Source: Yuukianura sp. NJ FZ-2021 (taxonomy: Eukaryota). From it: a DNA stretch of 64,000 nt. The notes under the pieces were generated by a model. That model did no database searches, had not been told where the DNA came from, and was given only the letters and a program-made list of their open reading frames with translations. Of the stretch, positions 194 to 26,549 are shown in pieces. Where the stretch lies: assembly GCA_046563655.1 (NCBI GenBank), contig CM102285.1, positions 14,818,001 through 14,882,000 of the forward strand, given 5' to 3'. How positions within the stretch are numbered: position 1 is the stretch's first letter; each line of letters opens with the position of its first letter. Made by a program: the position numbers and the translations under genes.

Positions 194-1394
194 ATGGGTA
201 AATTAAAATTTAAAATTAAATGAATTAATTGTTTTATAATAGTTTTTAATTAGTTTTAAAACTAATTAATTGTTCTAGGGGGTGATGAGTCTTGGGTGAC
301 ATTTGTGAGTGATGAAAGCGAGGCTTGGGCTTCCCTTGCTCTTGCGAGATCCATCAAGCGGACTTTCTCCACTAAAAAGTTGACGGCATTTGCAACTGAT
401 GCTGTCTCTCCTGCTCTCAAGTGAGTCTATTTAAATGTAAATTTAATTCACATTTAAATTAAATAAGTTAATTAAATAATTACGTTATTTTAATATATTT
501 ATATTTTGTTAGGTTTCTTCTGGAAGATGAATTTGACCTTGTAGTGACCGTGACCTCTACGGATCTGCGCTCTGAATCTCTGCACGGATCTTTGGCTAAG
601 ATTTTGTGCTGGAAGTTGGCTCCCTGGAACAAGTGTGTGTATGTCCATCCCAATTCTCTGGTAAGGTCAACGTCAAAGTTTTTGCAGGGTCAAAGTCAAA
701 CTTTTTGCTGGGTCAAAATCAAAGTAAAAGTATTTTCTTGACCAGGCTAAAAGTTTCTGCAGGGTCAAAGTCAAAGTCAAAGTTTTTGGTCAAAGTTAAG
801 AGATGACATTTAACCAACATTTTTGTCACAGGTTTTGGAAAACTGCGATGAATTGTTTCGAAAAGACGAACTGGCAAGTACTTCCGGGGATACTTTGTCG
901 CTTTTTGTGTTTCGTCCGAGTGCTAAAACGTTTTGGAGTCTGTTGCGTGCAGTTGAGAAGGGAAACTACGCTGATTTTGGAGAAGTTGTCCAGGAAAAGT
1001 TTCCAGGAATCAAGCGAAGAGTACTGGATGAAAAATATGGTGCTGCAGTGGGAGAAGAGGGAGTCAAAGTTGGGTAATGTTTAGAAATTTTTTTTTTAGT
1101 TTTTCAAAATCTTTCAAACTTTCCCAGTTTTCTTGATTTGGGCTTTTTCCTTTTCCAGGTCCAAGGGTCTCAAGCTGATCAACTTTGTTCAGCATCCTTG
1201 GAAAATGGACGGATCGAAGCAAAAGAAAATGGCGGAAGTAAACACCATTTTCGAAACTTACAACAAATAAGTTTCAAAATTTTATCGTTTTTATAATTTT
1301 GTTTGGTTCTAAAATTACTTTTTTGTAGAACTTTCTTTCCGTTTGGCATGAAATTTATTTCGGAGACGTTCTTCCGCTTGTTCAAAATTTGAAG
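194..1394 (+). other. N-terminal glycogenin-like (GT8 fold) pseudoenzyme domain, about 227 aa, exons 1-6 of the PKS gene
   Basis: Spliced translation MGGDESWVTFVSDESEAWASLALARSIKRTFSTKKLTAF...AKILCWKLAPWNKCVYVHPNSLVLENCDELFRKDELAS...FVFRPS...KLINFVQHPW...FLSVWHEIYFGDVLPL is colinear with glycogenin (AFVTL..[65 protein letters not shown].IF...VLPL). Confidence 0.85.
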
Positions 1395-4300
1395 GTAGGC
1401 AGACTCGCATCTCTGATAGTTGAATCATTAAATTCTTTCATTTTTCAAAATTTAAAATTATAATTATTATTTTTTTAAAAAAACTTTTTCAAAACACTTT
1501 TTTTTAGAAAACTGAAATTCGCCAAGCGTTAGTTGACTCTTTGGCTTCAAACGGCCTCCCACCAGGAACCTCTCCGCGTGACGCTCCAGAAATTCTGATT
1601 CCAGAAGAATTGTCCGACGCCGTGGCAATCGTTGGCATGAGTTGTCGTTTTCCCGGTGCAAATTCTGTTGCCGACTTCTGGAATTTTCTGATTGAAGGCC
1701 GAGATCCGATTCGGGAATACCCGGCAGATCGTCCGAACTACACCGACTGCCTCACTGACGACACTTACTTTGGAGCTGGATTTCTGACATGCCCAGTTGA
1801 CGAATTTGATGCTAAATTCTTTGGAATTAGTCCGCGTGAGGCTCCATTTGTGGATCCCCAGCAGAGACTTCTGCTGGAAGTGACTTGGGAGAGTCTGGAA
1901 GACGCTGGAATCAATCCGCACACGCTCAAGGAGTCTGACACTGGAGTGTTCATGGGCATTTGGCAACAAGACTACGATCGCTTTTTGCCCAACAAAGGCT
2001 TAAGTGCGAACGATTTTCATCATAGATACCTCGGAAACGCTTTCAGCGCCACGGCATCACGAATTTCGTACCATTTGGGGCTCAATGGACCGTCGCTTGC
2101 ACTGGAAAGGTCAGACACGCTGAATTCCAAAATGTTCAAATTCAGAAACCCCAAACTTCAAAATCCCAATATTCAGAAACCCCAACTTTAGATTTAGAAG
2201 CCCCAACTTTAGATTCAGAAACCCCAACTTTAGATTTAGAAGCCCCAACTTTAGATTCAGAAACCCCAACTTTAGATTTAGAAGCCCCAACTTTAGATTC
2301 AGAAACCCCAACTTTAGATTCAGAAACCCCAACTTTTAAAATGTCCTGATTTAGGAAACCCCGAATTTGAAAATGTCCCCAGATTCAGAAACTCCAACTT
2401 TGTCAACTTTAAAAATGTCCAAATTCAGAAACTCGTTTCAGAATACCTACTTTTTCTCTTTTTTTTCTAATTTCAAAATTTTGAAAAACTTGGAATTTTG
2501 ATTTTTGGTTTTCAGCGGTTGCTCGTCTTCAATGGGAGCGATTCACTTGGCCTGTCAGAGTCTGCGCCGTGGGGAAACAAATTTGTGCATCACGAGCGGC
2601 GTCAATTTGATTTTGATGATTTTGAATCCACTTTCTGGAGATGACAAGGACACGGTTGTGCTGTCCAACGACTATCGCTGCAAAACGTTTGATGAATGTA
2701 TGAACAATTTGCAAATTTTGAATTTTGAAACTTTCTTACAAAATTAAAATGCTTGGACATTTAAATGTTGACGTTCTGAATTTTTAGACTAGTACCACCA
2801 ATGAGATGAGAAATCTTCGCTTTGAATCGGAAGTTAATTGAATTCTTTAAAATTTTAGCGGCCGACGGATTCGTTCGTGCTGAAGGTTGCGGAGTTGCAA
2901 TTTTGAAGCGCTACGCAGACGCTTTGCGAGAAGGAGACAAAGTGCTTGCGCTGATTCGTGGATCAGCGCTCAACAATGATGGGGCTGGAACGAGTTTTGG
3001 AACTCCACACGCATGGGCACAGGAACGCGTCATTCGAGACGCTTTGGCTGATGCGCATGTCCATCCTTCTGAAGTGAGCTACGTCGAGGCCCATGGCACT
3101 GGAACGGTTGTTGGCGGTAAGCTTAAAATTTCGAAAACTCAAAAAGTTTTTCAAAAAACTTATAAAGGTAATAATTTTGGTAATTACTGTGCAAAAGTTA
3201 ATTAATTTGGTTAATTAGATCCAACGGAGATGTATGCCATAGGGCAGGTTTACTCTGAAGGAAGAGTGGATCCTCTGCTCGTCTCTTCCGTCAAGACAAA
3301 CATTGGACATGCGGAAGCAGCCGCAGGAATTGCAGGTAAAAATCACATTAATTAACAAAAAATTTAAACATTTAAATCAAGGTTTTTAGTACTTTGGAGA
3401 AGTAACTATTAAAAAAAAAAGTTGGAAATTCGAAAACTGTACTTTTTCTGAGAAGAAACAAAGTTTTTTGACTTTTTTTTTGTATTTCCATTTCCGCTTT
3501 CTCATGTAACTTTACTTTTTAGTTACTCCCTCCGGGAAGACATTGAACCTCCTCCTTCATTAACGTTTCAGTTTCAAACGTAATAATTTCACTCAAAATT
3601 TACAACTTTGTGTCAAATTTTTTACTTTTTCAAAAAAAAAAAAATCGCATCGTTTCAATTAACATTTCTTTGGTAAACGACCAAAAACATTTTTTTTTTT
3701 TATAAAATCCTTTCTTTTTTTCTAAAAAAAAAAGTCTTCGAAAAAAATTTATGAATTTTGGGACCACATCTCGTGTACAACTTAAGACTTATATTGAAGT
3801 TAGTTAATTTTTTAAACAATTTTTTGTTAGGCGTGATGAAGGTGATTTTGTCAATGAAAGCAAAAACGCTTCCGCCGCATCTTCATTTGAAAACGCTCAA
3901 TCCTAGGATAAACCTTGAAGCGATTCCAGCAATTATTCCAGTGCAGGCGACACCGTGGCCGACTCCTTCCAGCGGCGGAAGTCGAATCGCTGGAGTGAGT
4001 TCATTCAGCATGAGTGGCACCAACGTTCACATGATCATCCAAGAACCCCCTCAACCCCGTACCCCCTCAACCCCATCCGGAAAACCCCAAATGATTTCGA
4101 TCTCTGCCAAGTCGGAAGAAGCTTTAGAAGAGTTGCGGAAAAAGTACATGGACTTTTTAGCCGGAAATCCAGGAATTAACATTGACCAATTAGCGTTCAC
4201 TACGAATGTTGGACGAGCTCATTTGTCCAATCGCTTAGCAGTTGTGGGAAAAGACGTTACGAATCTGATTTCGAAATTGGAGAACAGAGGATATGTTACG

Positions 4301-7300
4301 GGCAAGGTCACCCAGAAAGCGAAGATTGGATTTTTGTTTACGGGTCAAGGGTCGCAGTATGTCAACATGGGAAGGAATCTGTACACAATGTTTCCAGCAT
4401 TCCAGCAAGCTTTTGACAACTGCTCGGAACTCTTTTCGGAAAAACTCGGAATTAAACTGGAGTCGGTCGTGTGGGACGGCGAGGGAAAACTTCTGGACAA
4501 AACGATTTACTGCCAACCGGCAATTTTTTGCTTACAATTTGCTCTGCTCCAGCTCTGGAAGTCGTTCGGTATCGAACCGGACTTTGTTCTGGGACATTCG
4601 GTAAGTAACCGACCATAACCGACTATAATGTAGCGTTTGGGGACAGTCTCAAACAGTTTGGGAGCAGTTTGAAGAATTGAGCCTGATAGCCCAAAGGTTA
4701 GAGTGCTTCCCGGATAGAAGAGAAGTGGGGTCGAATCCCACTCGGTCTCTTATTTTTTTTGCACACTCGTTTTTTGTTTCTCATTTCATGTTACCTCTGA
4801 ATATCAACATAGTCGCACATAATCAATTTGACTGCTTTAGGTCGGTGAATTTGGAGCCGCAGTAGCCACTGGTGTGCTGAGCTTGGAAGACGCCATGACG
4901 TTAGTCGTTGAGCGAAGCCGATTGGTCGATTCGTTACCGCACGGAAGTATGCTAGCCGTTAAGGATTCAGCCGAAAAAGTAACAGCAGCTATTAAAGCAT
5001 TTGCTAAAGCCGGTGACGGAAACGATCGAGCACTGGATGTCGCTGCGATCAATTCAGCTGAAGAAGTCGTCGTTTCTGGAAGTCCTGGAGCGATTGAAGA
5101 ATTTTCAAAATTTTGCGCCAACAACTTCGGTGGACTCAAAACTCAGCTGATTCCAGCCTCACATGCTTTTCACTCGCGTCAAATGGACCAAGTTTTAGAC
5201 GAATTCGGATCCGTCGCTGAATCTGTCACAATCAACCCACCAAAAGCAACTTACGTCTCAGGAACTTTAGCTCGAGTGATGGAATTCAGCGATTTCGGAC
5301 CGGATTACTGGAAACGACATCTCCGCGATACCGTTCGGTTTTCCGAAGCAATCAAGTCCCTTTGGTCATCCGAATGCAAAACTTTAGTTGAAATTGGCGC
5401 TCAGCCGATTCTACTTGGCCTAGCAATGGCCAATATCACGGACAGTCACAACGGCAGTTTCTGTCCATCGCTGCGACGCTCAGAAGAAGACTGGCTGTCC
5501 GTTTTTACTGCTCTGAGTAAACTGGAAGTGGCTGGAGCTGACATTGATTGGTCCAATTGGTATGGGCGGGGCTTAAGGAAAATTGACCTGCCCCATTACC
5601 CGTTCCAGCGTCAAAAGTTCTGGTTTGTAAATGAAGATGGCGGGAATGGATTCAATTTGAATACGCGCTTGCTCCACCCACTTTTGGGGAGACAAATGCC
5701 CGCCCCCCTTTCGGACAACATTTTCTGCCATACGCTGCGGGTCAAAGAAATCACGTGGGTGGAAGATCACAAAGTGGCTGAAAGAGTCATTTTACCAGCA
5801 GCAGCGTTTCTGGAAGCGATCATGGCCGCTGGAAGAGAAGTGCTCCAATCAGGTAATTTCAACAGTTGAAACCACATTTGACCTTTGACCTTCATAGTTG
5901 ACTTTTGACCTGGTTGACCATTGACTTTTGACCTATATTGTTGACCCTGGACTTTTGACCTTCATAGGTACCTTTGACCTTTATAAATTGATCCTTGATA
6001 CTCATAGTTGACCTTCGACTTTTATAGTTGACTTTTGACCTTCACAGCTGACCTTTGACCTTCAAAATTAAGCTAACTTTTCCTCAACTTCAAAACTTGG
6101 GCTGCTGATACTTTCAAAGTTTGACGAACCTCAAAATAACGGAACTTGACCGCAGTTGACCTTGACGTCATTAATAAATTGTTCTGACCTCAATTTCAAA
6201 AGTTTACCTTTGACCTGCAAAAGTGCACTCAGTGGTGACCTTTCCATGAAGAAGGGTCAAATACGTTGAATAACTGTTTCAAATAATTTGTAGTTTTAAC
6301 AATTTTACAATTTCAATTTCAGGCGGCGTTCAAGTGCCACTTACCGTGATGGACTTAGCAGTTGAAGCAGCGCTGGAACTGAGCAAAGCTTCGCAGATCC
6401 AAACTATCGTCAGTTCGGCCAGCGTCGAAGACGGAATTCAGTACAAAGTCGGCATTCATCGGCAAATGTCGACCGAACAACCGGACAAATGGAAGCGACA
6501 TGCAACCGGAACCTTTTCTCCAAGTACAAAACTTCCAGAAACGATTCAAGTATCGCTGGACGAACTTAAACAAAAACTAAGCCTCAAAGATTCAGTTGAA
6601 AAAGCTTATGCCACAATCGCTGAAATCGGAATTCAATTCGGACCGAAATTTCAGTCAATTTCAAAAGCATGGACAGGTCCGTCCGAAATCCTGACGGAAA
6701 TCGTCCTTCCCGAAGATTCCGTCCATTATATCGTCCATCCAATTGTAATTGACGCCATGATCCAAACATTTGCTTTTCGTTATGCCTTGACCACTCAAAC
6801 TCCACAGAAGGAACTCCAACTGCCAATTGCAATTAAAAAGTTTGTTTGGCTCAGCAAAGAACCGACTGCGCAGCTTTATGCGCATACTGAATGGGGGACG
6901 GACGGTTCAGAAGGGAATGTGAGTCTGTATAGTTCCAGCGGCGAGAGATTAGCGATCATGGAGGGGCTGGAATTGCTCAAAACGACGGTCGACAGTTTCA
7001 TCCGGACGCTGATTACGGACGGGGCTCATTTACCGGACTTTTTACACGAAACTTGGCGACCGGCACACGGTTGGACGACGAACCGAATCGATCCGAGTGC
7101 TCTACCGGACGTTACCCGAGACATGCCGAATGTGGCCGAAACTTGGGCCGATGTTGATGCTTTTACACAAACGGAATGGAAAGGCTACGAACTTGTGAAC
7201 GACATGTTTTTTCAGTTTCTGTGCCGGTGAGTTTTTTGAAATTTTTGGCGGTCGAGATTTCGAAATTTTGAAAGATTAGTTATGTACAAATTTCCAGTTC

Positions 7301-10300
7301 TCCATTAGTTTTTACCAGGATTAATTGGTTTTTACTTAAAAAAAAACGGGTTTTGGTATAAATGATTGTTTTTTCTTTGAGCAAATCAAAATTTGCAAAT
7401 TCCTATAAGCACAAAAAGTTAATTTTTTCAATTTTTTTTCGCCTTTTGTAAATTATTTTATATTTTAGGGATTTAAACCGAATTTTATTGCAAAAAATAC
7501 CGCCTGGTTTAAATCAACAGGTTTAAACTAAACTAACCCTAGTTTTTACCCATTTTTTTTCAATACGCAGGAGCATCCAGGAGTGCGGACTTCCATGGCC
7601 CGTTGGCCAAAAAATTTCGCACTCTTCTTGGACAAGTATCATCAGCGGCCAAATTCAAGTTTCGAAAATCGTTCGCGCCTATTTCGACATTCTTAGAAAA
7701 GAGAAATATTTAGACGTTGACGGCGACACTGCTTTGGTCCTCCGACCACTTCCGACAATTGACGACATCGAACGTGAAATCCGCGATTTGTCGGAACGTG
7801 CCGAACGGATTTGTGCCAACGACGACGTCATTTTCCGATTCGCCAAGCGGATTGGTCAGCACATGACTTTAGTCTTGCAAGGCAAAATGACTCCTCTGGC
7901 TTTACTTTTTCCCGACGACAAAAACGAAACCGGCGCGTCAAAAATTTACAGCGATTCGCGTTGGTACATTCTCAACACACGATTGGCCATTGCTCTCCTG
8001 TCAGATGCCGTTACCGGTTTGGAAGAACGCGGGAAAGGCAGAATTCGAATTCTGGAAGTCGGAGCTGGAACGGGAGCTTCGAGTGTCAAATTAATGGAGC
8101 GCCTGCGTGAACTTAATGTTCCATTTCACTACACTTTTACAGATATTTCACCTTTGTTTCTAGCCGAAGCCCGCCAAAAATATACAAGCAAAGACATCAC
8201 TTTTGAAATTTTGAATATCGAAGAAGATCCGCTTCCGCAAGGATTCGCACCGGAACAGTTTGACTTTATCATTGGCATGCAAGTGGTCCATGCAACCCGT
8301 GATTTGACCGAATCCCTGACGAACATGCGCAAACTGCTCAAACCGGACGGAATGCTGCTGATGCTGGAGCAGTTTCAGTCAGTATACTTTCTGTCGCTCA
8401 GTTTCGGACTTCTGGATGGTTGGTGGCGATTTACTGACTTTCGCCAACTTTCGCCAATTGTCAGCGCTCAGGAGTGGACAGATTGTGCTCACCAGGCTGG
8501 ATTCGATCGCGTGACGGCCGTGCAAATGTATGATGACACCAATGGAGCTATTTTGGCTAGAGCAAGTACTGCGCCAGTATTCAAATCTCAAGTTGCCCCA
8601 GGACCAATCAGCGACGACCATCGACCAAACTGGATTCTGATTGGCGACGGAACTCATCTTGCCCAGGAATTGGTCACTCGTCTAAGAAATGTCAACAGAA
8701 AGGTCATCCAGGTCAAACTGGAATTCGACAACGGCGACATTGGGATGAATGTCGCCGGAGACGAAGTGACATTGAATGGACTCAAGCCGGAAGCGTTTCA
8801 AGAATTTTTTGAGACTTTGAAAGACCAAAAAGTAGAAGCAGTTGTGTTTATGTGGACGAAATCGCGTGTGGACGAAGAAATCGCGCCGGTTCAGCGCACT
8901 CTCTGCGCAGGTCTGCTCCATGTTTGTCAAAGTTACCAAACGTATGTTCAAAAGCTCAAGAAAAAACCGAAGTTGATGCTGCTGACTCGCGGAGTGAACT
9001 ATATTGGAGATGCTGCTGCTGGTGACCCTACGGGAGCTGCTGCTCTGGGATTGGTCAAGAGCTTCTCCAATGAGAATCCAGAACTGCTCATCCAGACTCT
9101 GGACATGGACCAGAATGAAGAAGATCCAGAAGCGGAAGTGGTCGAAGTATTTTCACATCTCTGGACAAAAGAGAGAGAACTCTTTGTAGCGCTGCGTGAA
9201 GGAAAGAAATTCCTGCAGCGATTGGTCACTACTGAAAAGAGATCTCAACCAATCAACCTCCCGAATGCAGACAGGTTCGATTTTTAGTTTAATTACAAAT
9301 TACTTTTTAAAAGTATTTCAAAATTTGGACGCCACTATGAAAAAAAATGCTTGTCAATTAAAACAAACTGTATAAGGCAAGATAACCTGAATTGGTCCGT
9401 TCTCGAAATCATGAAATATTCGCGCTATAATGTGCTAATTACTACTGAATTTGACTGTAATTACAATTAATTACTTTGTAGTTGTTGTGTTTAGGTTAGG
9501 TTCGTTAAATCTTACTGGCAAAAGTTAGTAGTAGGATATTTAACAAGCTATTTGCCAGTGTAATTGATGTAATTACTGATGAACTTACGTCTAATTACTT
9601 TGAGAATTACCAGAAATTGCAGAATCAGAAAATATTAGACAAATTACAGTAATAATTGTAAATTGTTGCTTTACCTTATTACTTTGTATTTTTCACTTTG
9701 TATTTTTATGAAAATTTTGACTGGCAGAAGTAGTAAAATCAGGAAATATTCACCAAATTGCAGTAATTAGCCAATAATTGATGTAATTACTGATGAACTA
9801 ACGTGGGAATTACTTTGAATTACTTTAGGTTCAAGCTGATCAACCCAGCGAGTGGGGCCTTTAACGACATCGAGGTGGGGCCAATTCCAAAGCAAGAGCC
9901 AATCAAAGACGAAGTTGAACTGGCCATTGAAGCCACAGCACTCAACTTCCGCGATCTCTTCATGATTCTCAAACCAGAAGGATTTCCAATTCCAAAAGAT
10001 CAACCGCTCGAAGTCGGACTGGATATTTCTGGAACAGTGACTGCTCTTGGACCAGACGTCAAAAACTTGCAGGTCAGTGACCTTTGACCTTCAAATTCCA
10101 AATATTTGACCTTTGATCTTCCAATTTCTCAGTATTAGACCTTTGACCTTCAAATTCCATGTCTCCAAATTCCAAGTATTTGACCTTTGACCTTCAAATT
10201 CCAAGTATTTGACCTTTCAGTTTCCCAGTATTTGACCTCTGACCTTGCTTTGACCTTTTTTTTATTACAGGTCGGAGATGAAGTTTTTGGATTTACTTCG

Positions 10301-13300
10301 CACGGTGGCCTTTGCAGTCACGTCGTCGTCAGTTCCCGTGCTTTGATGAAAAAACCGCCAAACATGACTTTTGCCGGAGCGTCAACGATTCCTTGTGCCT
10401 TCCTCACTGCTTACTATTCGCTAATCCAAGTGGCCAAAATGACCAATCAGGATCGCGTTCTCATTCACGTTGCATCAGGCGGAGTTGGACTAGCAGCGAT
10501 TCAAGTAGCCCAGCACATCGGTACTGAAATTTATGCCACTGCAGGGAGTCGGCGCAAAAGAGCTTTTCTGCGTTCCCTGGGCATCAACAACGTCTACCAC
10601 TCTCGAAATACTGACTACGGTGAAGGGATCATGCGCGATTCCCACGGCGCAGGCGTCACAATCGTCTTGAACTCTTTGACTGGACCGAATTTCAAAGAAA
10701 CTTCTTTGGCTGCGTGTTGTGAGGGGGCCCAATTCATTGAAATTGCTAAACTGAATATTTGGAAACCCGAAGAAGTGACGGCCCTGCGTCCAGACGTGAA
10801 GTATTACATCATTGATCTAGCAGAAAAAGTTTGGCAAGCACCGGAAGATGCTGGCGACATGCTGGCCGACATGAACTCTTATTTTGACAAAGGACACTAC
10901 CGCGGATTGCCTTCTACCGTGTTTCCACTTGACTTAAGCCGAGAAGCTTTTTATCACTTTCAAGAGGCTAAGCACATTGGGAAAATTGTTGTGAAGTTGC
11001 CCAAGGTTACGGTGTCACAAGAAGGCAGAATCAAGTTGGTCCATCACATTTTTAACAGTCAGAGTACTTATTTGATCACGGGGGGACTTGGAGGCCTTGG
11101 CATGGAAGTGACAAAGTGGATGACCAAAAATGGAGCTCAAAACATTGTCCTTGTGGGGCGCACTCCACCGATTCCTCGTGCACAGGAACTGATCGACGGT
11201 TTGAATTCGAGCGGGAAGAGAATCGTTGTGATCCAAGCAGACGTGGGAGAATTTGAGCAGTGTGAGAAGATTTTGAGAAGAATTGAGGAACTGGAAATGC
11301 CGCCATTACGAGGAATTATGCATGCTGCGGGAGTAATTTCGGATGCGATTGTACCAAATCAGACGTGGGAAAAGTATGAAAGTGTTTTACGGCCGAAAGT
11401 TTACGGGGGATGGTACTTGCATAATCTGACTAAATCGTTTGACATGGAATTCTTCGTGATGTTTTCATCTGGAGCGGCAATTATCGGGGTCATGGGTCAA
11501 AGTAACCATTCGGCTGCAAATAGGTACTTGGACTCTCTGGTTCACTACAGACTGTCGCTAGGACTCAAGGCCACAACGATCAACTGGGGAGCATGGAGCG
11601 ATGTAAGGAAATATTTCAAAACAATCTAGAAATTAAGGAAATATTTTTTTAAAAAAATCTCCCAATTAAGGAAATATTTTAACACAATCTCAAAATTAAG
11701 GCAATATTTCACAGCAATCTCGAAATAATGGCAGCCAAATTATTCAACTTACACATTACCAGACTTGCCAAAAATATTTCGTTCTCATGCATGTAGTGTT
11801 AACGAAATCAATATTTCGGGTCTTTTTGTTACTGAATATTTTTTTTTATTGTTTGCATTAACTTTTTGCAAAATGAAAATTTATAAACACTTGGATGAAA
11901 CTTAATGACTAAAGAAAGAATATTTTGTATATTTTATTTATTTAAATATTTATTTATTTACCCATTCCCTTAATGTTGAGTTCGTAAATATTCCGAGCTT
12001 TTTCATTGAATTTCGCTGGTTTTTGGTAAATATTTTTGGCAGGTCTGAACATTACTTACACAACTATTTTTTTTATGTTACCACTATACCTGTAAGTAAT
12101 AATAATAATATTTCTGAAGTACTCAAGCAATGTTTAGTTACATAAGTGAATAATTTGAGTAAATAATGTAAAACAGGTGAAAATGTAAGCATAGTGTAGG
12201 ATAAGAAATTACTGGTACATACTGCAACTTTTGTACATGAATGACTCACTTGATTTTGGACTAATTTTTTTTAGGTTGGCGCTGCAGCCCACATTAAGTT
12301 GGGTCAAGAAGGAGCCATTGGAATGCGATCTTTCACTCCAGCTCGTGGAATCGCTGCTCTGGAAAAGATCATGCGCGAAGGAGACACTCAATCCGTTGTG
12401 CTGGACGTCATTGACTGGAACATTGTGAAACAATTTGTAAATGGACTTGGAAACTACTTGGACGAAATGAGATCAGACAAAAGTGCTCTGGACAACTTCT
12501 CTGAAGAATATGCCAAGATGGTCGAAGAAATCAAAGCATCGCCTCCAGAAGAACGCCAAGAGAAGATCCAGAACTTCCTGGAAGCCATTTTGAAACAAAC
12601 ACTAAGACTTCCTGAAAATGAAAAGATCGATCCAGATCAAAATTTCAGTGAACTTGGAGTAGATTCTCTGATGGCCATGGAGATGCGCAACAGATTGCAG
12701 GGAATGCTGGGTGACAAGACACTCACAGTCAGTTCTTTACAAGAAAATCGTACACTGCGCAGCCTGTCCACGCATATGGCCAATCTGATGAACTCCGATT
12801 CTGCTCCGATGGCTCCGTTATCCGAACTTGTCCGAATGGACTCCATTTTGCCCGATGACATCCGAGCGGCAGAAGAGGGGCCTCGGAAACCCTCGGAATT
12901 CAAATCAGTTTTGTTGACAGGGGCAACAGGTCACCTTGGTTTATATTTTATCCCACAACTTCTGTCGGCCAATCAAATTGAGACTGTGGTGTGCCTCGTG
13001 AGGGGTAAGGATCAGGAGGAAGCTCAGACGCGATTGGTCAATGCCATTGGACGATATGACCTCAGTGACCTCGTGGACATGTCTCGTGTCCGGGTAGTTG
13101 TTGGGGATGTGTCCAAAGAGAACTTGGGCATGAGTCCGGAAGAGTATGACGAACTTGTTGGCAGTGTTGATGCTGTTGTCCATTGTGCCATTCGATCAAA
13201 TCATCTGGACGGTAAGACAAAAAATATAAAACTAGGGATGCAGTGTTGGGTTTCGTTTCCGTTTTCTGCTAAAAACGGAAACGGAACGGTAGACCGGAAA

Positions 13301-14616
13301 CACAAATAGAACATAAATCTTTATAAACCGGATCAACGAAAACGGAATAAAAAAAAACGGTTTAAAAATGGGAAAACGGTTAACTGCATAACGAAATTTC
13401 AGCAATTAGATTTCATGTTCTGCCTTTCAAAATCCAAATCTGGTCAATCGCAAAAGTCAAAACTAATGGACATGAATTTTAACGTTTAAGTTTTAATTTC
13501 CCAAAAATTTAGCGCGGGGTGCGGGTGATGAAAAAATGGACATTTCTCCTGGTTTTTCTGTTTTCCGTTTTCTCCCTTTTTTTTTTGATTTTCGTTTTTC
13601 GGCGACAACGGAAACGAAACGAAAGGTACCGTTTTAATAAAAATTCAAAAACCGAACACGGAAAAAACAGAAAGTCCGTTTCGTTCCTGGTTTTACACGG
13701 AAACGGCGGCAACCCTATCTAAAACACAAAATTTTGAATTTCAAAAAATTTCGAAAATTTCAACATTTTGGAATTGTTGGTTTCAGGTTACAGTGAAGGT
13801 GGTAGCAACAGTTTACGAAACCAAAACGCTTTGAGTACCGTCCACATTTTGCGGTTCGCCGGAACGACCCGAACGAAACCGATTCTCTACGCGTCGTCAC
13901 TCGTTGCCGTAACGAAAGCAATTGACAACGAACTGGTCGAAGAGTTTCCGGATCCAGACGACTTTGGTGAAAAAGTGACCAGTGGCTACATCTTGTCCAA
14001 GTTCATCTCGGAGAAACTTCTGCGTGAAGGAGCCGTCCGCGGTATTCCGTCCACCGTGATCCGGTACGCCTCGATCATGGGCAACTCTGTGACCGGTGCC
14101 ATGCCAACGGGCTACAACCATTCATGGAGTATCCTCGTTTCGTGCATTCGGATCCGGAAGTTCCCGCGGTTCGACCAAAACGGTATTCCGATGATGGCTG
14201 TCGACACGGCAGTGAAGATCTCCTCTGAGATATTCTTGAAAGATGACTCCGAATTCGGAGTTTACAATTTGACCAGCAGTTCGCAAGTATCGGAGGATGA
14301 CATTACGGAAGTATTTGCTAAATTTGGTATCCATGGAGAGTACATTCCGTTTATCGAGTGGAGAAACATTGTGTTTGAAGAGATGGACCAGAATGCTCTC
14401 GGTCCAGTTGGATTCCTGTATGAAGATGAGGGAGAAGCTCCAAGATTCTTAAGATTCCATCCACTTGCGCATGACATTGACCATCTCCAGGTCAACTCGC
14501 TGAGTAAAAAAGTACTTGCGAATCTTCCAAATGTCCACGACATGATTCTGCCTGCCAAGGTTGTCATGGAACGTCATCTGGACTACTACCACAAAACATT
14601 GACCAAGGAACCGTAG
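194..14616 (+). CDS. Glycogenin-like domain fused to single-module highly reducing type I polyketide synthase (GT8-like-KS-AT-DH-cMT-ER-KR-ACP-R), about 3190 aa, 18 exons
   Basis: Phase-consistent GT-AG exons: 194-197, 279-420, 513-660, 832-1073, 1159-1237, 1329-1394, 1508-2109, 2516-2697, 2859-3116, 3219-3335, 3831-4600, 4841-5852, 6323-7226, 7571-9274, 9829-10072, 10271-11602, 12275-13211, 13787-14616 (sum 9573 nt, divisible by 3). Motifs: KS DPQQRLLLE, ESGCSSS, EAHGTGT, KTNIGH; AT FTGQGSQ, GHSVGE, HAFHS; DH HPLLG, DHKV..ILP; cMT ILEVGAGTG; ER IHVASGGVG; KR ITGGLGGLG; ACP LGVDSL; R LLTGATGHLG and GYILSK. Confidence 0.9.
2140..2400. repeat. Intronic minisatellite, 21-bp units alternating as a 42-bp higher-order repeat
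   Basis: TCAGAAACCCCAACTTTAGAT / TTAGAAGCCCCAACTTTAGAT in tandem (core about 2173-2335) inside PKS intron 2110-2515. Confidence 0.9.
4680..4748 (+). pseudogene. Degenerate tRNA-like element (tRNA pseudogene or SINE head) in PKS intron
   Basis: A-box-like TAGCCCAAAGG, perfect 5-bp T-stem GTGGG-GTCGAAT-CCCAC, partly pairing acceptor ends AGCCTGA/TCGGTCT, followed by a T-run; mismatches in D and acceptor stems. Confidence 0.55.
5875..6070. repeat. (TTTGACC)-type low-complexity tandem repeat in PKS intron
   Basis: Repeated TTGACCTTTGACC/TTGACTTTTGACC; similar arrays at about 665-800 (opposite orientation) and 10078-10255. Confidence 0.8.
7316..7541. mobile_element. hAT-like MITE in PKS intron
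   Basis: Perfect 8-bp flanking duplication GTTTTTAC (7308-7315 and 7542-7549); imperfect TIRs CAGGATTAATT / AACTAACCCTA. Confidence 0.55.
11760..12047. mobile_element. hAT-like MITE in PKS intron
   Basis: 20-bp TIRs CAGACTTGCCAAAAATATTT / AAATATTTTTGGCAGGTCTG (1 mismatch); 8-bp TSD CACATTAC/AACATTAC. Confidence 0.85.
13233..13717. mobile_element. hAT-like MITE in last PKS intron
   Basis: Ends TAGGGATGC / GCAACCCTA, subterminal AAACGG/CCGTTT repeats, 8-bp TSD TATAAAAC/TCTAAAAC. Confidence 0.75.
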
Positions 14617-15060: not shown

Positions 15061-18000
15061 TCATTTTTTAAAAGTAATGCTCTTACCCTCTTTGGCTCTG
15101 AACGGATTTACGAAAAAGTTGGAGGCTCGTGGTCGGTTGTTGGCTCCGCCTCCTGCGACGTTCTTGTCCTTCTGCCCAGCATCCAGCATCTTCTGCTTTT
15201 TGTGCGTCTGCACAGGACTGTCATCTCCTTCAGCACTTCTCTTCTTCCCTTTCTTCATCCACTTCACTTTGTCAAAGAACGCCTTCCGCTTCTGCCTCTT
15301 CGATTCGGACTTCTTCGGACTCCACCTCGTCTGTTCCTCCTCATCCTCTGAATTTTCTTTGCTGACCTCCAAATCAACTGACTTTTCTTTCCTGACCTTC
15401 GTTTCTGCTGACTTTTCTTTCCTGACTTTCAAATCGGCTGACTTTTCTTTGCCGACTTTCATTTCAGCTGACTTTTCTTTGCTGACCTTCGCTTCTGCTG
15501 ACTTTTCTTGGTTGACTTTCGGAGCCTTTGGTCCATTCTTCTTAGCCAGTTTCTTTGCATAAGCCTTCAAATTTCACAAAAGTAATCAATAATTATTATA
15601 ATAATATAAATATATTGATATAAATCAATTAATTGTACAGAATAAAGTTAAACAGTATCTCACCATGGGATTGATTGCAACAAAATCCTTTTCCGGTAAA
15701 ACACGATCCAATCGGCCCATTTTCTCTGCCGGAACTGCAGCGGACAATGGTTTATCAGCTTCTGCCGGATCGGCAAGTATCGTATCCCGAACAGCACGAA
15801 CCACTGGATCGTCCATGTCCAGATTAGCCTTCTTGGTAGGATTCTTCAGAATGTCCAGAATGTTGTTGCTCAACTCATAACGCCCATAGGCACTTGAATC
15901 TTCCCGGACTTTGGTAGTTCCGAACCGACGAACGCCGAACGGTATGCTGGAACTTGTGCGAATGACAATATCGGAACAGTCAATTGTCGGTTTCCGGTTT
16001 TCCGAAAATACGGATTGACGGAACTGATCTTGTGTGACCCCAACAGTAGAAATCAAGGATTCGTCAACATCATGGATGCTGTTCAGCAGAATCATCCACT
16101 CCTTCTGCTTCTTCCGCTTGTCCGGTCCAGTCCATTCCACTTTATCCTTAAAAAAAATGAAATAATGTAAAATTTTGAAAAATTTGAATGTTGAAATGAA
16201 AACTTACTTCGTGAAGAGGTAAATCCCTGGCTTTGAGTATAATTCTATGAAGATCACCCAAGTACTGCTGAACCAACGGTGGAATTGGTTCACAACAGGA
16301 GAGGATTCCAGTCATTTCCTTCGGCAGCGTTTCAGCGATTGTGAGTAACATGTGATTAGGCAGCACATAACTCAAACTCTCGTCTTTCTCTCGTCCAATG
16401 GCGTCTCTCCAGTTGTACAGTTCAGTAAAGGCAAAGAGTTGGCGATTGTTCAAATGTCGCCGTGTTTTCCTCAGAGCCAACTGGGAATTTCTTCCTGGTT
16501 TCTCATAGCGCTAAAACCAAAAGTCAATGTTGATTATAATTAATCAAAATTAATCGATTAATTAGTTCATTAAAACCACTCACTTTGAGACAAGCTAGTC
16601 TCGATTGCTCATAAACAGCACGAAGTAGGTTCTTGTTTGCATTTCCTTGCTCGATCAGCTGAGCCTTGAGCAGATCGTGAATGAAAAGCAGAAAATGCGT
16701 GTCCTGTCTGGCATAAGTCAACATTTCTTCTGGAAGTGGTCTGTAAAAAAACGAGAAACAAAATTTTGAAAACGTATTTCAGAATTTGGTTGAGAAAAAT
16801 GACGAAAAAACTTACCTCAGTCGCCAATCAGCTACTTGATACTTTTTATCAAGTTCAATGGAGCAAAAGTGGGCCAAAAGATGTTGGAGTGAGAAATGGG
16901 CAAAATTGAGTTGCTTCATGGCCAAATAAGTGTCAAAAAGCCCGACAACATAAACTCCGAAATCCCGCTGAAGCCACTCCAGATCACAAGTTGCACCGTG
17001 AAAGACTTTGACGATTTTTGGATTAGTGAAAATTTCATTCAAGGCTTCAAGGTCTTTCCACAGTGGAAGTGGATCAATGATAAAATCCTTGTCTCGAGTT
17101 GAAATCTGAATAAGACAAGTGAGTCCAAGGAAAGTTCTGTAGGAATGATGCTCCAAATCTACTCCAATTTCTTTCACTTGACGCAACTCTGTGATCATTT
17201 CTTCTAAACCGTCAACTGTATCGATGTAGATGAGTGGAGTTTCCTCTAAAGGCTTTGGTGCTATCGGACTAGATTTCTCCAGCATCCAATCCTTCCCCTC
17301 AAAACGACCAAGCTCCACTTCATACGGGTGACCATAACTAAAAAAAAAAGAAAACGTTTTAAAAACGTTTTTACAATTTTTTTGAGAAAACGTTTTACAA
17401 ACAAAATTTGAGAATGAATGTGATTTGTGGTTACAATTCTTCATTGTTGGCAGTATATTCCGGAAGGATAGACAGTGGCTTCAGGGAATTCGGTTTCATG
17501 TTTAGCTTTGGAACAAACGGACTCAAACTGTTGTCAATTGCATCAGCAAACTTGAGTTGTGGCTTCTCAGTCACCCGGAGACGATGGACGGCTTTCTTGG
17601 TTGGTCTAGATTCGATAATAGATGCAGAGATAATCGGTTGTTTCTTGGACACTTCTGCAGAAGTATCTCTGAAATCTCCGCCAGATGCTGAAGATCCGAA
17701 TTTCTTCTTCCCCCATGTCCCCGGAGGTTTTAAGACGCCTGCGCTCACAGATTTATCAACCACCACCATCTCCGCTCGTTTAAATAAACCTTCAGCGTCG
17801 TCCAGAGAAGTTCCCTAAAAAAATCAGGTGATCATGACCTTAACGTTAGTTTCAATATCTACTTCGAACGTCTTACCACTCGTTCCAGAATGTCGTCGTT
17901 AGCTTCTACGAGAAAGTCCAGCTTCTCGTCCACTGTGCGTCTGCCATAGGAATGAGTCGATACCATTTCATGTTCCAGGATAATTTTGATGAGTGGCTCT

Positions 18001-18298: not shown

Positions 18299-18939
18299 TC
18301 TGTAATTACGTTCGTATTCACTTAAAAAGGAAACTGTATAACAGTATTAAAAATTAATTAGTTTAATTCAATTAATTAGAAAATTAACAAGTCATTTGTT
18401 TCCATTTTATGAATGAAAAACACGAAAACAAAACAAAAGTCAAAAGTGTGACAAAGCCAAAAGCGAGAGTGAGTGACACAAAATTCAAAATCACACGAGG
18501 AAATACTTTTCCCGCCATTTATCTCCCGTTGCCCCATTTCAACAAATGAAACGAAGAGGAACCGAAACGACATATTTTGAAATGGAAACGTTTGACAAAC
18601 GGACCGAAAAGAAACAAAAGAATTCAAACGTTGAACTTTTACTTTTACGTTTTAGCGTTGTTTGCTGTTTCTTGTTAAGTTTATTAATAGCCAAAATTCA
18701 TTAACTAACTTACAAATGTTAATGCGCGGCTCCTATTTACGCTTAGGTACACCAGTACCTTATCTCTTTTACCTGTAATCTTTGTAAAGTTTCAAAGATT
18801 ACCGTTTCTTTCATTATTCTGGAGTCCTGGGACACATAGGTTTGGTAAAATCAAATCTTTGAATTTCCTTTCATTTATACCGTGCCTTGCCAATTACGTT
18901 TGAGCGTTACACTGTTAATAAGGTCGCTAATCCAGAGTA

Positions 18940-23108: not shown

Positions 23109-23251
23109 CAGGGAAAGTTTTAAGTTCTGTTCATGCAAATGAGGGCATGAGGGGTCGGTTTTTCGCTATAACGCGTAACGCAGGAGGAATGTAATCGAAG
23201 TTAAAAAACCAGGACCCTCATTTGCACGAACAGAACTTAAAACTTTCATTG
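23109..23251. mobile_element. Tc1/mariner-type MITE (TA TSD) in the 5' region of MAD1 copy B
   Basis: About 37-bp TIRs CAGGGAAAGTTTTAAGTTCTGTTCATGCAAATGAGGG / CCCTCATTTGCACGAACAGAACTTAAAACTTTCATTG flanked by TA; the empty site TTTATACCGT is seen in the paralogous regions (about 18875, about 21990). Confidence 0.9.
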
Positions 23252-23327
23252 TACCGTACGCATTGACCCTTCGACCTTCTTGACTATTTGTATTTTTGCA
23301 GGTATACTGTCGAAGTCATACGAAGTT

Positions 23328-26300: not shown

Positions 26301-26549
26301 GTAGTTCCAGCACAACCGACCCAGAGGCGGGAAGTTCAAATAGAAGTGGAGGGAGAAGATGAAGATGAAGATGTGGGAGATGAATTGGGGAGTGACGAGG
26401 AAGATGATGATGTGGACCAAGGAGAGACGGAGGATGATGACTACTATGATGAAGAGGGGGACGATGTGGATTATGGACATGACAATAGAAGTGATGATGG
26501 TGGGGCAGATGAGGATGGTGACGACGACGATGTGGTGATGCTGGATTGA
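23328..26549 (+). CDS. MAD1L1: MAD1-like mitotic checkpoint coiled-coil protein, copy B, with acidic C-terminal tail
   Basis: Phase-consistent exons paralogous to copy A; 'RRLALIVQDRDSLRGLMESYENDF', 'LQNACTKLFGYYV', 'FRLQNI', 'MLLLDTPIL..DIERFLRQESSVPGFLAAVTI' resemble the MAD1 C-terminal domain; followed by a long D/E-rich tail. Confidence 0.75.

Follow-up and report, generated by a model that had tools for sequence, protein, structure and literature searches.

A bacterial-type, single-module reducing polyketide synthase gene in a springtail: gene structure, relatives and probable origin

Springtails have previously been described as carriers of polyketide synthase (PKS) genes of bacterial type. 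In Folsomia candida, 30 type I PKS clusters were called by antiSMASH and most of their genes were attributed to horizontal gene transfer (HGT; PMC5490193), and the springtail protein OXA62418.1 was cited as HGT (PMC10764717). Since bacterial-type PKSs of springtails have already been called HGT in these two papers, the gene described here, located in a stretch of 64,000 nucleotides (the window), is less surprising than the initial annotation had assumed. It is an additional member of an already reported kind. A described product of a springtail type I PKS gene was not found in the papers retrieved.

The closest described proteins are the springtail HGT PKSs of F. candida ('PpsC'-annotated P0414, P0531/OXA45421.1) and Orchesella dallaii, which fall into the same ER-KR clade (SH-aLRT 99). 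They share the host group and, according to precomputed Pfam lists, the cMT-ER-KR-ACP-R set with the window PKS, but differ in belonging to another subclade, with 43-49% identity in ER-KR and ∼30% overall identity for P0531. Bacterial cis-AT fully reducing modules with a cMT, namely curacin CurJ/CurL and, for ER-KR, mycocerosic acid synthase (MAS), are the best solved matches. Bacterial loci such as L128 and L153 encode the module order KS-AT-DH-cMT-ER-KR-ACP in one frame like the window PKS, and its KR His variant is common in bacterial modules. However, the bacterial modules lack introns, mostly belong to multimodular lines in which each module acts once, and reach at most 45% identity (ER-KR). 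Fungal highly reducing PKSs (HR-PKSs) of the LovB type, some of which end in R, resemble the window PKS in layout, in being stand-alone and probably iterative single modules, and in having an active cMT and a psiKR, but score far lower than bacterial PKSs (see below). Animal FAS and AFPKs are likewise animal-encoded type I megasynthases with the order KS-AT-DH-(MT)-ER-KR-ACP, while they differ by a pseudo-MT, mostly a TE, and a similarity to the window PKS well under that of bacterial PKSs. Terminal R domains have been reported for some arthropod AFPKs (PMC10764717).

Gene model and domain architecture

Removal of 11 GT-AG introns (102-672 nt), the same number as originally annotated, leaves 12 exons with a single open frame of 2963 codons (Table 1). 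Exon junctions were picked by GT-AG ends, reading frame and alignment to relatives, and the junction between exons 7 and 8 (7226/7571) is the least certain one. The span first proposed needs correction at its start: because the frame of exon 1 has no start codon, the gene begins further upstream than 1508. GC content is 0.48 in the exons and 0.31 in the introns.

Five coding-like exons upstream join exon 1 in frame without stops, and the start codon may lie there, at 1205 or at 1229. These exons, including a frame at 814-1077, gave no Pfam matches and no similarity to any PKS or locus compared, and a relative (L002) begins directly at its KS. They may alternatively belong to a separate gene, as its 3' end with a stop at ∼1267. 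A further possibility is that the N terminus of the PKS is fused to a domain outside all known families.

Table 1 Features of the PKS locus (positions in the window)
Feature	Position	Strand	Details
Five upstream coding-like exons	279-420, 513-660, 832-1073, 1159-1237, 1329-1394 (within 279..1394)	+	read from sequence
PKS coding region	1508..14616	+	12 exons; stop TAG 14614-14616
PKS exons 1-6	1508-2109, 2516-2697, 2859-3116, 3219-3335, 3831-4600, 4841-5852	+
PKS exons 7-12	6323-7226, 7571-9274, 9829-10072, 10271-11602, 12275-13211, 13787-14616	+
KS	1616..4058	+	exons 1-5; Pfam PF00109, PF02801; SGCSSS, EAHGTGT, NIGHAE
AT	4331..5539	+	Pfam PF00698 on both exons; GHSVGE, HAFHS
DH	5675..6981	+	Pfam PF21089, PF14765; H-KVAERVIL-P, DAMIQ
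cMT	7995..8513	+	ILEVGAGTG, VVHAT; five SAM-methyltransferase Pfam families above cut-offs
psiKR, structural	8637..9149	+	Pfam PF21394 Beta-ketacyl_N, 35.3 bits (cut-off 26.9)
ER	9905..10993	+	Pfam PF08240, PF00107, PF13602 (ADH_N/ADH_zinc_N); LIHVASGGVGLAAIQ
KR	11063..11602	+	Pfam PF08659, 208.9 bits; TGGLGGLG, Lys, Ser, GQSNHSAAN
MITE-like host repeat, 288 bp, intron 10	11760..12047	.	20-nt terminal inverted repeats, arms 95% complementary
ACP	12578..12775	+	Pfam PF00550; LGVDSL (DSL serine present)
R, terminal thioester reductase	12914..14217	+	Pfam PF07993 (NAD_binding_4) on both exons; TGATGHLG, YILSK; split by intron 11
Second inverted-repeat element, intron 11	13250..13620	.	32-nt arms, 84% complementary; X1 loose end at 13250, depth raised
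EXOSC10-like host gene, convergent with the PKS	15061..17818	-	Pfam DNA_pol_A_exo1 (2.6e-39), HRDC (1.1e-13) at 16148-17480

Pfam matches on 11 of 12 plus-strand frames, all 11 lying within 1508-14616, gave the order KS-AT-DH-cMT-psiKR-ER-KR-ACP-R, including the KS-AT linker. Their scores are above the curated cut-offs, and a single polypeptide carries KS, AT, DH, ER, KR and ACP in the canonical arrangement. Every catalytic motif checked was found in the translation, and all motifs quoted previously (VDPQQRLLLEVTWESLEDAG, LPHYPFQRQKFW, GHSVG, HAFH, ILEVGAGTG, VVHAT, TGATGHLG, YILSK and GQSNHSAANRYLD) are present after splicing; the KS Cys/His/His said to be intact are located in SGCSSS, EAHGTGT and NIGHAE. 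The usual form of the KS motif is DTACSSS; here it reads ESGCSSS, which is common to the family members covering that site. HAFH in the AT is taken by us as the malonyl-specific form. In the DH, Glu replaces the Gly of HxxxGxxxxP, and the His, the Pro and DxxxQ are kept across relatives.

A Glu at +26 after VVHAT completes a His...Glu dyad in the cMT, presumably with the spacing of CurJ, and these motifs are kept in relatives. The SAM motif, the dyad and the nearest characterised C-MTs together predict a methyltransferase of the active type and not a FAS pseudo-MT. The KR contains the catalytic Lys and Ser, and has His at the usual Tyr position, where it pairs with the Tyr of MAS in the alignment. 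Among rows matching the pattern, this variant occurs in 25 of 34 family members and in 97 of 397 others; a review also states that the catalytic Tyr of KRs is sometimes replaced by histidine (PMC7327777). The solved proteins nearest to the R domain are a PKS R domain (8v1x), carboxylic acid reductases, MxaA, an R domain of an Mtb NRPS and that of AusA.

The chromosomal setting is that of a host gene. Loose ends of contigs from the DNA run X1 accumulate at 11760 and 12047, the termini of the repeat in intron 10, and the summed contig depth over this repeat is raised 10-15x (∼5000 and ∼3300 in two bins vs ∼300-500 in most others). The repeat is thus short and non-coding, carries terminal inverted repeats and has a high copy number, as is characteristic of a MITE. 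In addition, the window contains 25 copies of TTGACCTTTGACCTT where 0.46 would be expected, 14 of them in introns 6 and 9 of the PKS and 11 elsewhere. The inverted-repeat elements, the rise in depth and the copies of TTGACCTTTGACCTT outside the PKS agree with the host MITEs proposed for the PKS introns. Due to its 3'-5' exonuclease and HRDC domains, both detected by Pfam, the convergent neighbour is EXOSC10-like, as had been suggested. Housekeeping genes lie downstream of the PKS, and host genes flank it on both sides. For an exon of a neighbouring hexosaminidase, identity to the orthologues in the springtails Allacma fusca, Orchesella cincta, O. dallaii and Folsomia candida amounts to 90-92%, which narrows the arthropod host of the initial annotation to a springtail. 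Relative synonymous codon usage of the PKS correlates with that of neighbouring genes (r=0.74) to the same degree as one half of the host genes with the other (0.73).

Relatives and origin of the gene

In an IQ-TREE phylogeny of the ER-KR exon (83 rows), the window PKS forms a clade of 40 rows (SH-aLRT 99) with 34 metagenome or assembly rows and five named springtail rows, all of the latter from F. candida and O. dallaii, and this clade is placed among bacterial modular PKSs. The same clade was recovered by FastTree from 482 rows with a support of 100. The window PKS therein belongs to a subclade of 14 rows (SH-aLRT 86) that holds no named member. Thus, it is part of a springtail family of bacterial-type PKSs that stands apart from the bacterial rows. 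Over the ER-KR exon, the closest relatives share 58-62% identity with the window PKS and the named springtail proteins 43-49%, and no named bacterium exceeds 45%. In the KS tree (FastTree, 301 rows), the window PKS groups with the four family members bearing a KS (support 99), and this group nests in one of 36 rows (support 90) together with Parachlamydiales, Gammaproteobacteria MAGs and metagenome modules. The bacterial neighbours agree between both trees; the ER-KR tree singles out neither a sister group nor a donor. A KS phylogeny had been proposed as a check of the bacterial origin, and the one built from best database matches returned bacterial neighbours. The trees include no animal FAS or FAS-like PKSs, no PKSs of the echinoderm or vertebrate type, and none from fungi (HR-PKSs) or protists; the HGT call therefore draws on the nesting seen among the top database matches and on the similarity rankings.

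In these rankings, the closest solved proteins were bacterial cis-AT PKSs in all five regions compared. For KS exon 1, EryAIII (122.6 bits) and CurL (121) exceeded FAS (72.5), and CurL was the top solved match of both the linker/AT exon (182.7 vs 66.7 for LovB and 63.7 for FAS) and the AT exon (141.1). CurJ C-MT (130.7) and DisA (129.6) led for the cMT exon, followed by LovB (96.3), and the FAS pseudo-MT was absent among the 16 solved-structure matches to this exon. For the ER-KR exon, MAS reached 274.9 bits compared to 177-197 for FAS, 147 for EcPKS1 and 101.5 for LovB. Together with the trees, this bears out the assignment of the gene to a bacterial type outside the animal FAS/FAS-like group.

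A descent from fungal HR-PKSs, or from an old eukaryotic lineage, would be suggested by the order KS-AT-DH-cMT-ER-KR-ACP-R, which is the typical layout of fungal HR-PKSs, and by the many fungal-like genes that springtails have acquired. In addition, citrinin PKS and psoF (115 bits each) score little under CurJ (131) for the cMT exon, and a feature-based Atlas look-up with F. candida P0414, useful as a lead only, returned first an all-eukaryote cluster in which Ascomycota are commonest (0.91). This origin nevertheless appears improbable to us in view of the low LovB scores for the linker/AT and ER-KR exons and the absence of LovB among the 60 matches listed for KS exon 1. In the four regions in which LovB and psoA appear, bacterial entries outrank both by far (solved structures only), and among the named rows of the best 120 matches listed there is no fungal name, those outside the family clade being all bacterial. 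Vertical inheritance from an animal PKS or FAS would agree with the animal-type introns, the host codon usage and the host chromosomal setting, but is still harder to reconcile with the data and has in our view very little probability: wherever FAS, Drosophila FAS1 or the mollusc FAS-like EcPKS1/2 appear, their scores are well under those of bacterial PKSs (for FAS, 72 vs ∼120 bits in KS exon 1 and 177-197 vs 275 in ER-KR), the pseudo-MT and the TE of FAS are replaced here by a cMT of the active type and an R domain, and the named eukaryote relatives among the matches listed are springtails only.

It would also be conceivable that the locus represents a relic, either decaying or silent, or a chimera of the assembly with bacterial contamination. 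No RNA run is among the runs listed, and in the relative L002 the frame is broken by two stops and the R motifs are degenerate. Against such a reading, which we consider highly unlikely, the frame of the window PKS is open throughout with all motifs intact, and 12 of 14 exonic differences among the 40 rows listed are synonymous, the others being V>I and D>E; some of these differences may stem from paralogues, since reads were matched at 80% likeness. Contig 14 of run X4 joins 13210 to 13786, matching the predicted junction 13211/13787 in spliced form, and starts at the exon start 12275, and all seven X4 contigs listed lie within exons or the 3' UTR. Because the type of this run is marked 'DNA?', the spliced contig could also represent a processed DNA copy. 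Run X5, from a second organism and another study, carries the PKS with its introns; in pieces rich in exons, ∼2-3% of the letters are different. The presence of the gene in runs of two studies, the flanking host genes and the introns with host repeats that recur elsewhere in the window agree with the earlier statement that the gene is not a contamination. Introns also appear to be shared within the family: 18 of 35 ORF fragments stop at most five residues from the position of intron 10, an intron of L027 lies within two codons of intron 10, and one of L004 falls in the same codon as intron 11. Since the positions of these shared introns do not coincide exactly (1 nt in phase, or 1-2 codons), homology is likely, not proven. 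Repeat-bearing introns, host-like codons, mostly synonymous differences, the spliced contig and the second organism point to an old, domesticated and working gene, in line with the domestication suggested at the outset, and the mostly synonymous differences make it look constrained.

Proposed activity and biological role

Intact motifs and the nearest characterised domains are the basis for the following proposal. A host phosphopantetheinyl transferase would prime the ACP, the AT would load malonyl units and the KS would condense them, probably in several rounds. At the beta-keto stage of some rounds, or of every round, the cMT may introduce methyl branches from SAM, before KR (in its His variant), DH and ER would reduce the chain. 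Finally, the terminal SDR-type R domain would use NAD(P)H to free the chain as an aldehyde, which may undergo another reduction to the alcohol. The predicted product is therefore a reduced chain with methyl branches that leaves the enzyme as aldehyde or alcohol; both the iterative action and the substrates are presumed.

Instead of acting iteratively, the enzyme could take a fatty-acyl primer from primary metabolism and add one methylated, fully reduced C2 unit, resulting in a 2-methyl aldehyde or alcohol. In bacteria, the nearest relatives are single modules that each act once within a multimodular line, MAS is the best solved match for ER-KR and MAS-type enzymes extend fatty-acyl primers, and a loading domain was not recognised in the window by Pfam. 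We regard this single extension as rather doubtful, because stand-alone single-module PKSs of eukaryotes usually act iteratively, even though the sequence holds nothing that decides between the two modes.

We consider it likely that the locus encodes a functional springtail single-module, fully reducing type I PKS, belonging to a multigene family that descended from a bacterial cis-AT PKS module acquired long ago; direction and age of the transfer are inferred. After uptake, spliceosomal introns and host repeats would have entered the gene, and its codon usage would have become that of the host. Much more tentatively, a single ancient transfer of the whole KS-AT-DH-cMT-ER-KR-ACP-R enzyme, from a donor related to PKSs of Parachlamydiales or Gammaproteobacteria, may have given rise to at least 40 intron-bearing springtail genes, of which the window member would act iteratively and form saturated, SAM-methylated chains released as aldehydes for the unusual cuticular lipids of Collembola or for their chemical defence.

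Structure and catalytic residues of the PKS gene

Pfam places the PKS domains in canonical order on stop-to-stop frames of the + strand: KS, KS-AT linker, AT, DH, SAM methyltransferase (cMT), psiKR, ER, KR, phosphopantetheine site (ACP) and NAD_binding_4 reductase (R). Splice junctions, picked by GT-AG borders, reading frame and comparison with aligned relatives, define 12 exons which join to a single open frame of 2963 codons. The 11 introns counted in the initial annotation were recovered, all of them GT-AG and 102-672 nt long; of the junctions, E7/E8 is the most doubtful. GC content is 48% in the exons versus 31% in the introns.

Features of the PKS gene and its surroundings (window coordinates)
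Feature	Position	Strand	Remarks
Upstream coding-like exons (n=5)	279-420, 513-660, 832-1073, 1159-1237, 1329-1394	+	Good splice sites; in-frame join to PKS exon 1, no stops
PKS coding region	1508-14616	+	KS to R
PKS exons E1-E12 (n=12)	1508-2109, 2516-2697, 2859-3116, 3219-3335, 3831-4600, 4841-5852, 6323-7226, 7571-9274, 9829-10072, 10271-11602, 12275-13211, 13787-14616	+	GT-AG, frame, alignment
PKS stop codon	14614-14616	+	TAG
MITE-like element	11760-12047		PKS intron 10; 288 bp, 20-nt terminal inverted repeats
Second MITE-like inverted-repeat element	13250-13620		PKS intron 11; loose ends and very high summed contig depth in DNA run X1
Examples of TTGACCTTTGACCTT arrays	5878-6217, 10077-10246, 27218, 37120, 49099		Short tandem arrays
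EXOSC10-like gene			Downstream of PKS, convergent; exonuclease and HRDC domains
ORF with KEKSAE-like repeat	15061-15573	-	30/90-nt tandem repeat at 15348-15520
Coiled-coil paralogue 1	18931-21085	+	Exon series matching paralogue 2
Coiled-coil paralogue 2	23241-26549	+	Weak MAD (mitotic checkpoint) Pfam match at its end, 26046-26549

All motifs quoted in the initial annotation were found in the spliced translation. The KS Cys lies in SGCSSS and its His residues in EAHGTGT and NIGHAE; the AT carries GHSVGE and HAFHS, of which we take HAFH to be malonyl-type. In the DH, the His and the Pro of the HxxxGxxxxP motif are kept while Glu replaces its Gly, and DAMIQ is present. In the cMT, ILEVGAGTG is accompanied by VVHAT with a Glu 26 residues downstream, a spacing that presumably agrees with the His-Glu dyad of the bacterial PKS CurJ. 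The remaining motifs are LIHVASGGVGLAAIQ (ER), TGGLGGLG (KR), GVDSL (ACP), and TGATGHLG with YILSK (R). Catalytic motifs are kept across the alignment of the family, that is, the springtail bacterial-type PKS sequences grouping with the window PKS in the ER-KR tree.

Alignment to mycocerosic acid synthase (MAS) shows His at the catalytic Tyr position of the KR. This residue occurs in 25/34 family rows versus 97/397 other pattern-matching rows, while a further 53 rows gave no pattern match. Since the variant is common among these rows, and a review notes that the KR Tyr is on occasion substituted by histidine (PMC7327777), the KR is not counted as dead; inactivation by the Tyr-to-His change was dropped as unsupported.

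Exon 1 of the PKS lacks a start codon, has an in-frame stop just upstream and is preceded by an acceptor site at 1507/1508. With an E cut-off of 10, the five coding-like exons further upstream matched no Pfam family except for a single chance-level RFX match, nor did they resemble any retrieved PKS or protein. Either these exons would form an N-terminal extension of the PKS belonging to no known family, or those at 279-1237 would close a separate gene whose stop lies near 1267; in-frame ATGs at 1205 and 1229 are possible PKS starts. Because the intronless relative L002 begins right at KS, a short N terminus is favoured. This metagenome locus (1364-10200) has the KS-to-R layout of the window PKS and two in-frame stops, and its R domain is degenerate, with neither TGxxGxxG nor the Lys of YxxxK. 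From its sequence, L002 is probably a decaying copy.

Bacterial neighbours of the PKS module

The ER-KR exon (10271-11602) was searched against 1.84 billion representatives and against 90% clusters of 778-2220 aa; the representative search returned the best 150 rows by summed bits at any length, a ranking crowded by multimodule bacterial proteins. Among the matches listed, the nearest relatives are unnamed metagenome or Logan proteins (58-62%), and the named eukaryotes are springtails only, with four O. dallaii proteins at 43-47% and F. candida 'PpsC' at 49%, all sharing the cMT-ER-KR-ACP-R Pfam set. The top named bacteria among these matches reach 45% (an Acidimicrobiia MAG, Leptothoe spongobia, Parachlamydiaceae). 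For the cMT exon, the matches listed from a search of proteins of 1027-2930 aa only comprise three unnamed relatives at 28-35% identity and named rows that are all bacterial, at ~30%.

In a FastTree phylogeny of 482 distinct ER-KR rows, the window PKS and every named springtail row form a 41-row clade with support 100, and IQ-TREE (83 rows, quick search, LG+C20 PMSF) recovered the same clade with 40 rows (SH-aLRT 99). The latter divides into a window subclade of 14 rows with no named member (SH-aLRT 86) and another of 26 rows containing the springtail-named ones (SH-aLRT 97). The whole clade stands among bacterial rows with no clear immediate sister, next out being Parachlamydiales, Mycobacterium and a group that includes Gammaproteobacteria. 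In the KS FastTree (301 rows), the window PKS groups with the four KS-bearing family rows (support 99), and these are nested among 36 rows (support 90) that include the same bacterial neighbours. Of the KS phylogeny asked for in the initial annotation, this placement of window PKS and family covers the bacterial side. Since the KS and ER-KR trees agree on their bacterial neighbours, the whole module was likely acquired as one piece. In both trees the nearest bacterial neighbours include multimodular PKS lines of amoeba-associated chlamydiae, represented by four Parachlamydiaceae or Parachlamydiales MAG loci (L087, L091, L093 and L098), with weak support for a direct sister relation.

Solved structures ranked by sequence served as a labelled proxy beside the trees, which are without animal FAS, other animal PKSs and fungal HR-PKSs. 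KS exon 1 scored highest with bacterial PKSs (EryAIII 122.6, CurL 121, MAS 104.8 bits, versus psoA 80.4 and FAS 72.5), as did the linker/AT exon (CurL 182.7 versus the mollusc FAS-like EcPKS2 76.8, the fungal LovB 66.7 and FAS 63.7) and the AT exon (CurL 141.1, with no FAS or LovB in 58 rows). For the cMT exon the values were 130.7 (CurJ) and 129.6 (DisA) versus 115.3 (citrinin PKS) and 96.3 (LovB), with no FAS in 16 rows, and for the ER-KR exon 274.9 (MAS) versus 197.2 (Drosophila FAS1), 177-179 (other FAS), 147.1 (EcPKS1) and 101.5 (LovB, KR part only). The R domain came closest to the R domain of a PKS, to carboxylic acid reductases, MxaA, an Mtb NRPS R domain and AusA. Bacterial PKSs outscore FAS wherever both are listed, in agreement with the earlier remark that some of the motifs resemble bacterial modular PKS more than animal FAS. 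Bacterial PKSs also outrank the fungal entries among the solved structures. The ranking argues against membership of the window PKS in the animal FAS/AFPK group and likewise against a fungal source, by similarity and not as a phylogeny. A feature search of the Atlas, started from the F. candida relative, put a eukaryote cluster on top with Ascomycota as the commonest group (0.91), which is a lead for the fungal alternative.

Springtail host, introns and age of the probable acquisition

The hexosaminidase exon of the window matches a Logan protein at 92% identity, whose 90% cluster includes proteins of Orchesella cincta, O. dallaii, Folsomia candida and Allacma fusca. As this exon is 90.0-91.8% identical to the four springtail orthologues, the host is a springtail; at sequence level the conservation is too high for choosing its order. 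A Tribolium neighbour of the exon in FastTree was set aside in view of this cluster, and neither Rfam nor tRNA scanning of the window gave anything informative about host identity. The neighbouring EXOSC10 noted initially is confirmed as an EXOSC10-like gene by its exonuclease and HRDC domains. Further downstream follow two tandem MAD1-like genes, GH20 hexosaminidase, C13 peptidase, ThiF/UBA2-like, GST_C, FIT and FERM genes; no PPTase or tailoring gene was seen among the ORFs scanned in the window, as stated before. The matching exon series of the tandem coiled-coil paralogues suggests that a MAD1-like gene was duplicated locally. On the minus strand, the EXOSC10-like exons are closely followed by an ORF that encodes a Lys/Glu-rich KEKSAE-like repeat.

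Host MITEs, likewise named in the initial annotation, correspond to the inverted-repeat elements in introns 10 and 11 with their high depth in X1; the termini of the former coincide with loose-end pile-ups, and its summed contig depth is 10-15x higher. The motif TTGACCTTTGACCTT is present in 25 copies on both strands of the window versus 0.46 expected (14 in PKS introns 6 and 9, 11 elsewhere), often in short tandem arrays within introns. Between the PKS and its neighbouring genes the RSCU correlation is r=0.74; between two halves of the neighbours it is 0.73.

Gene calling on the relatives' eukaryote contigs yielded plain ORFs, whose ends mark introns, and the intron structure of the closest relatives (P0001, P0131, P0134, P0390) was deduced solely in this way. 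Ends at most five residues from the window intron 10 position are found in 18/35 family proteins, and nine begin near residues 1414-1445, where the window PKS has no intron. At the DNA level, a GT-AG intron of L027 lies at most two codons from window intron 10 (phase 1 versus phase 0), and an intron of L004 shares its codon with intron 11 (phase 2 versus phase 1); L002, L010 and others have none at these positions. Since intron positions recur across both subclades and codon usage is host-like, the sequences suggest that the family was acquired long ago and later underwent expansion and turnover of its introns. Given the small offsets in position, independent intron gain is possible.

Possible expression, apparent constraint and significance

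None of the sequencing runs listed for the window is recorded as RNA; three of the runs were aligned to it at 80% likeness. X5, from a second organism in another study, contains PKS exons together with introns and differs in ~2-3% of letters in exon-rich pieces; therefore the locus is genomic and common to both organisms. In X4, whose kind (DNA or RNA) is a guess, the longest contig measures 13 kb, depth climbs toward the 3' end, and 7/7 contigs listed fall within PKS exons or the 3' UTR. One of them has its start precisely at 12275 and runs from 13210 straight into 13786, with the predicted intron 11 removed. This contig is most simply cDNA, although it may be a processed DNA copy. In X1, the host DNA run, contig joints at 2067/2643, 2706/2823, 4030-4335 and others disagree with the predicted introns, which suggests divergent paralogues or haplotypes of the PKS in the same genome, picked up at this likeness; alternative splicing was not adopted for them. 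Among 40 listed differences (727 more lie beyond the listing) 14 are exonic, 12 of them synonymous and the others V>I and D>E. Part of these may stem from paralogues, and the gene appears to be under purifying selection.

The published F. candida genome is reported to have 36 antiSMASH clusters, 30 of type I PKS, with most genes called HGT, and dozens of bacterial-type PKS genes in springtail genomes without an assigned product (PMC5490193). In a passage by Lin et al., an F. candida PKS is cited as horizontally acquired and many arthropod 'PKS' genes are supposed to be likewise (PMC10764717). Our search of article full texts found no published domain layout, intron history or product for springtail PKS genes. 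Springtails make unusual lipids and defence compounds by enzymes that are not known, and the putative product of the window PKS matches this chemistry only loosely (PMC10825826).

The window PKS is a well-preserved addition to the known springtail acquired PKS genes and leaves the general picture of springtails with such genes unchanged. Two points were not found in the literature searched, namely the bacterial neighbours shared by the KS and ER-KR trees and the recurring introns in divergent members. Complete from KS to R, with defined splice sites and an initial sign of a spliced transcript, the gene lends itself well to expression and knock-down work.
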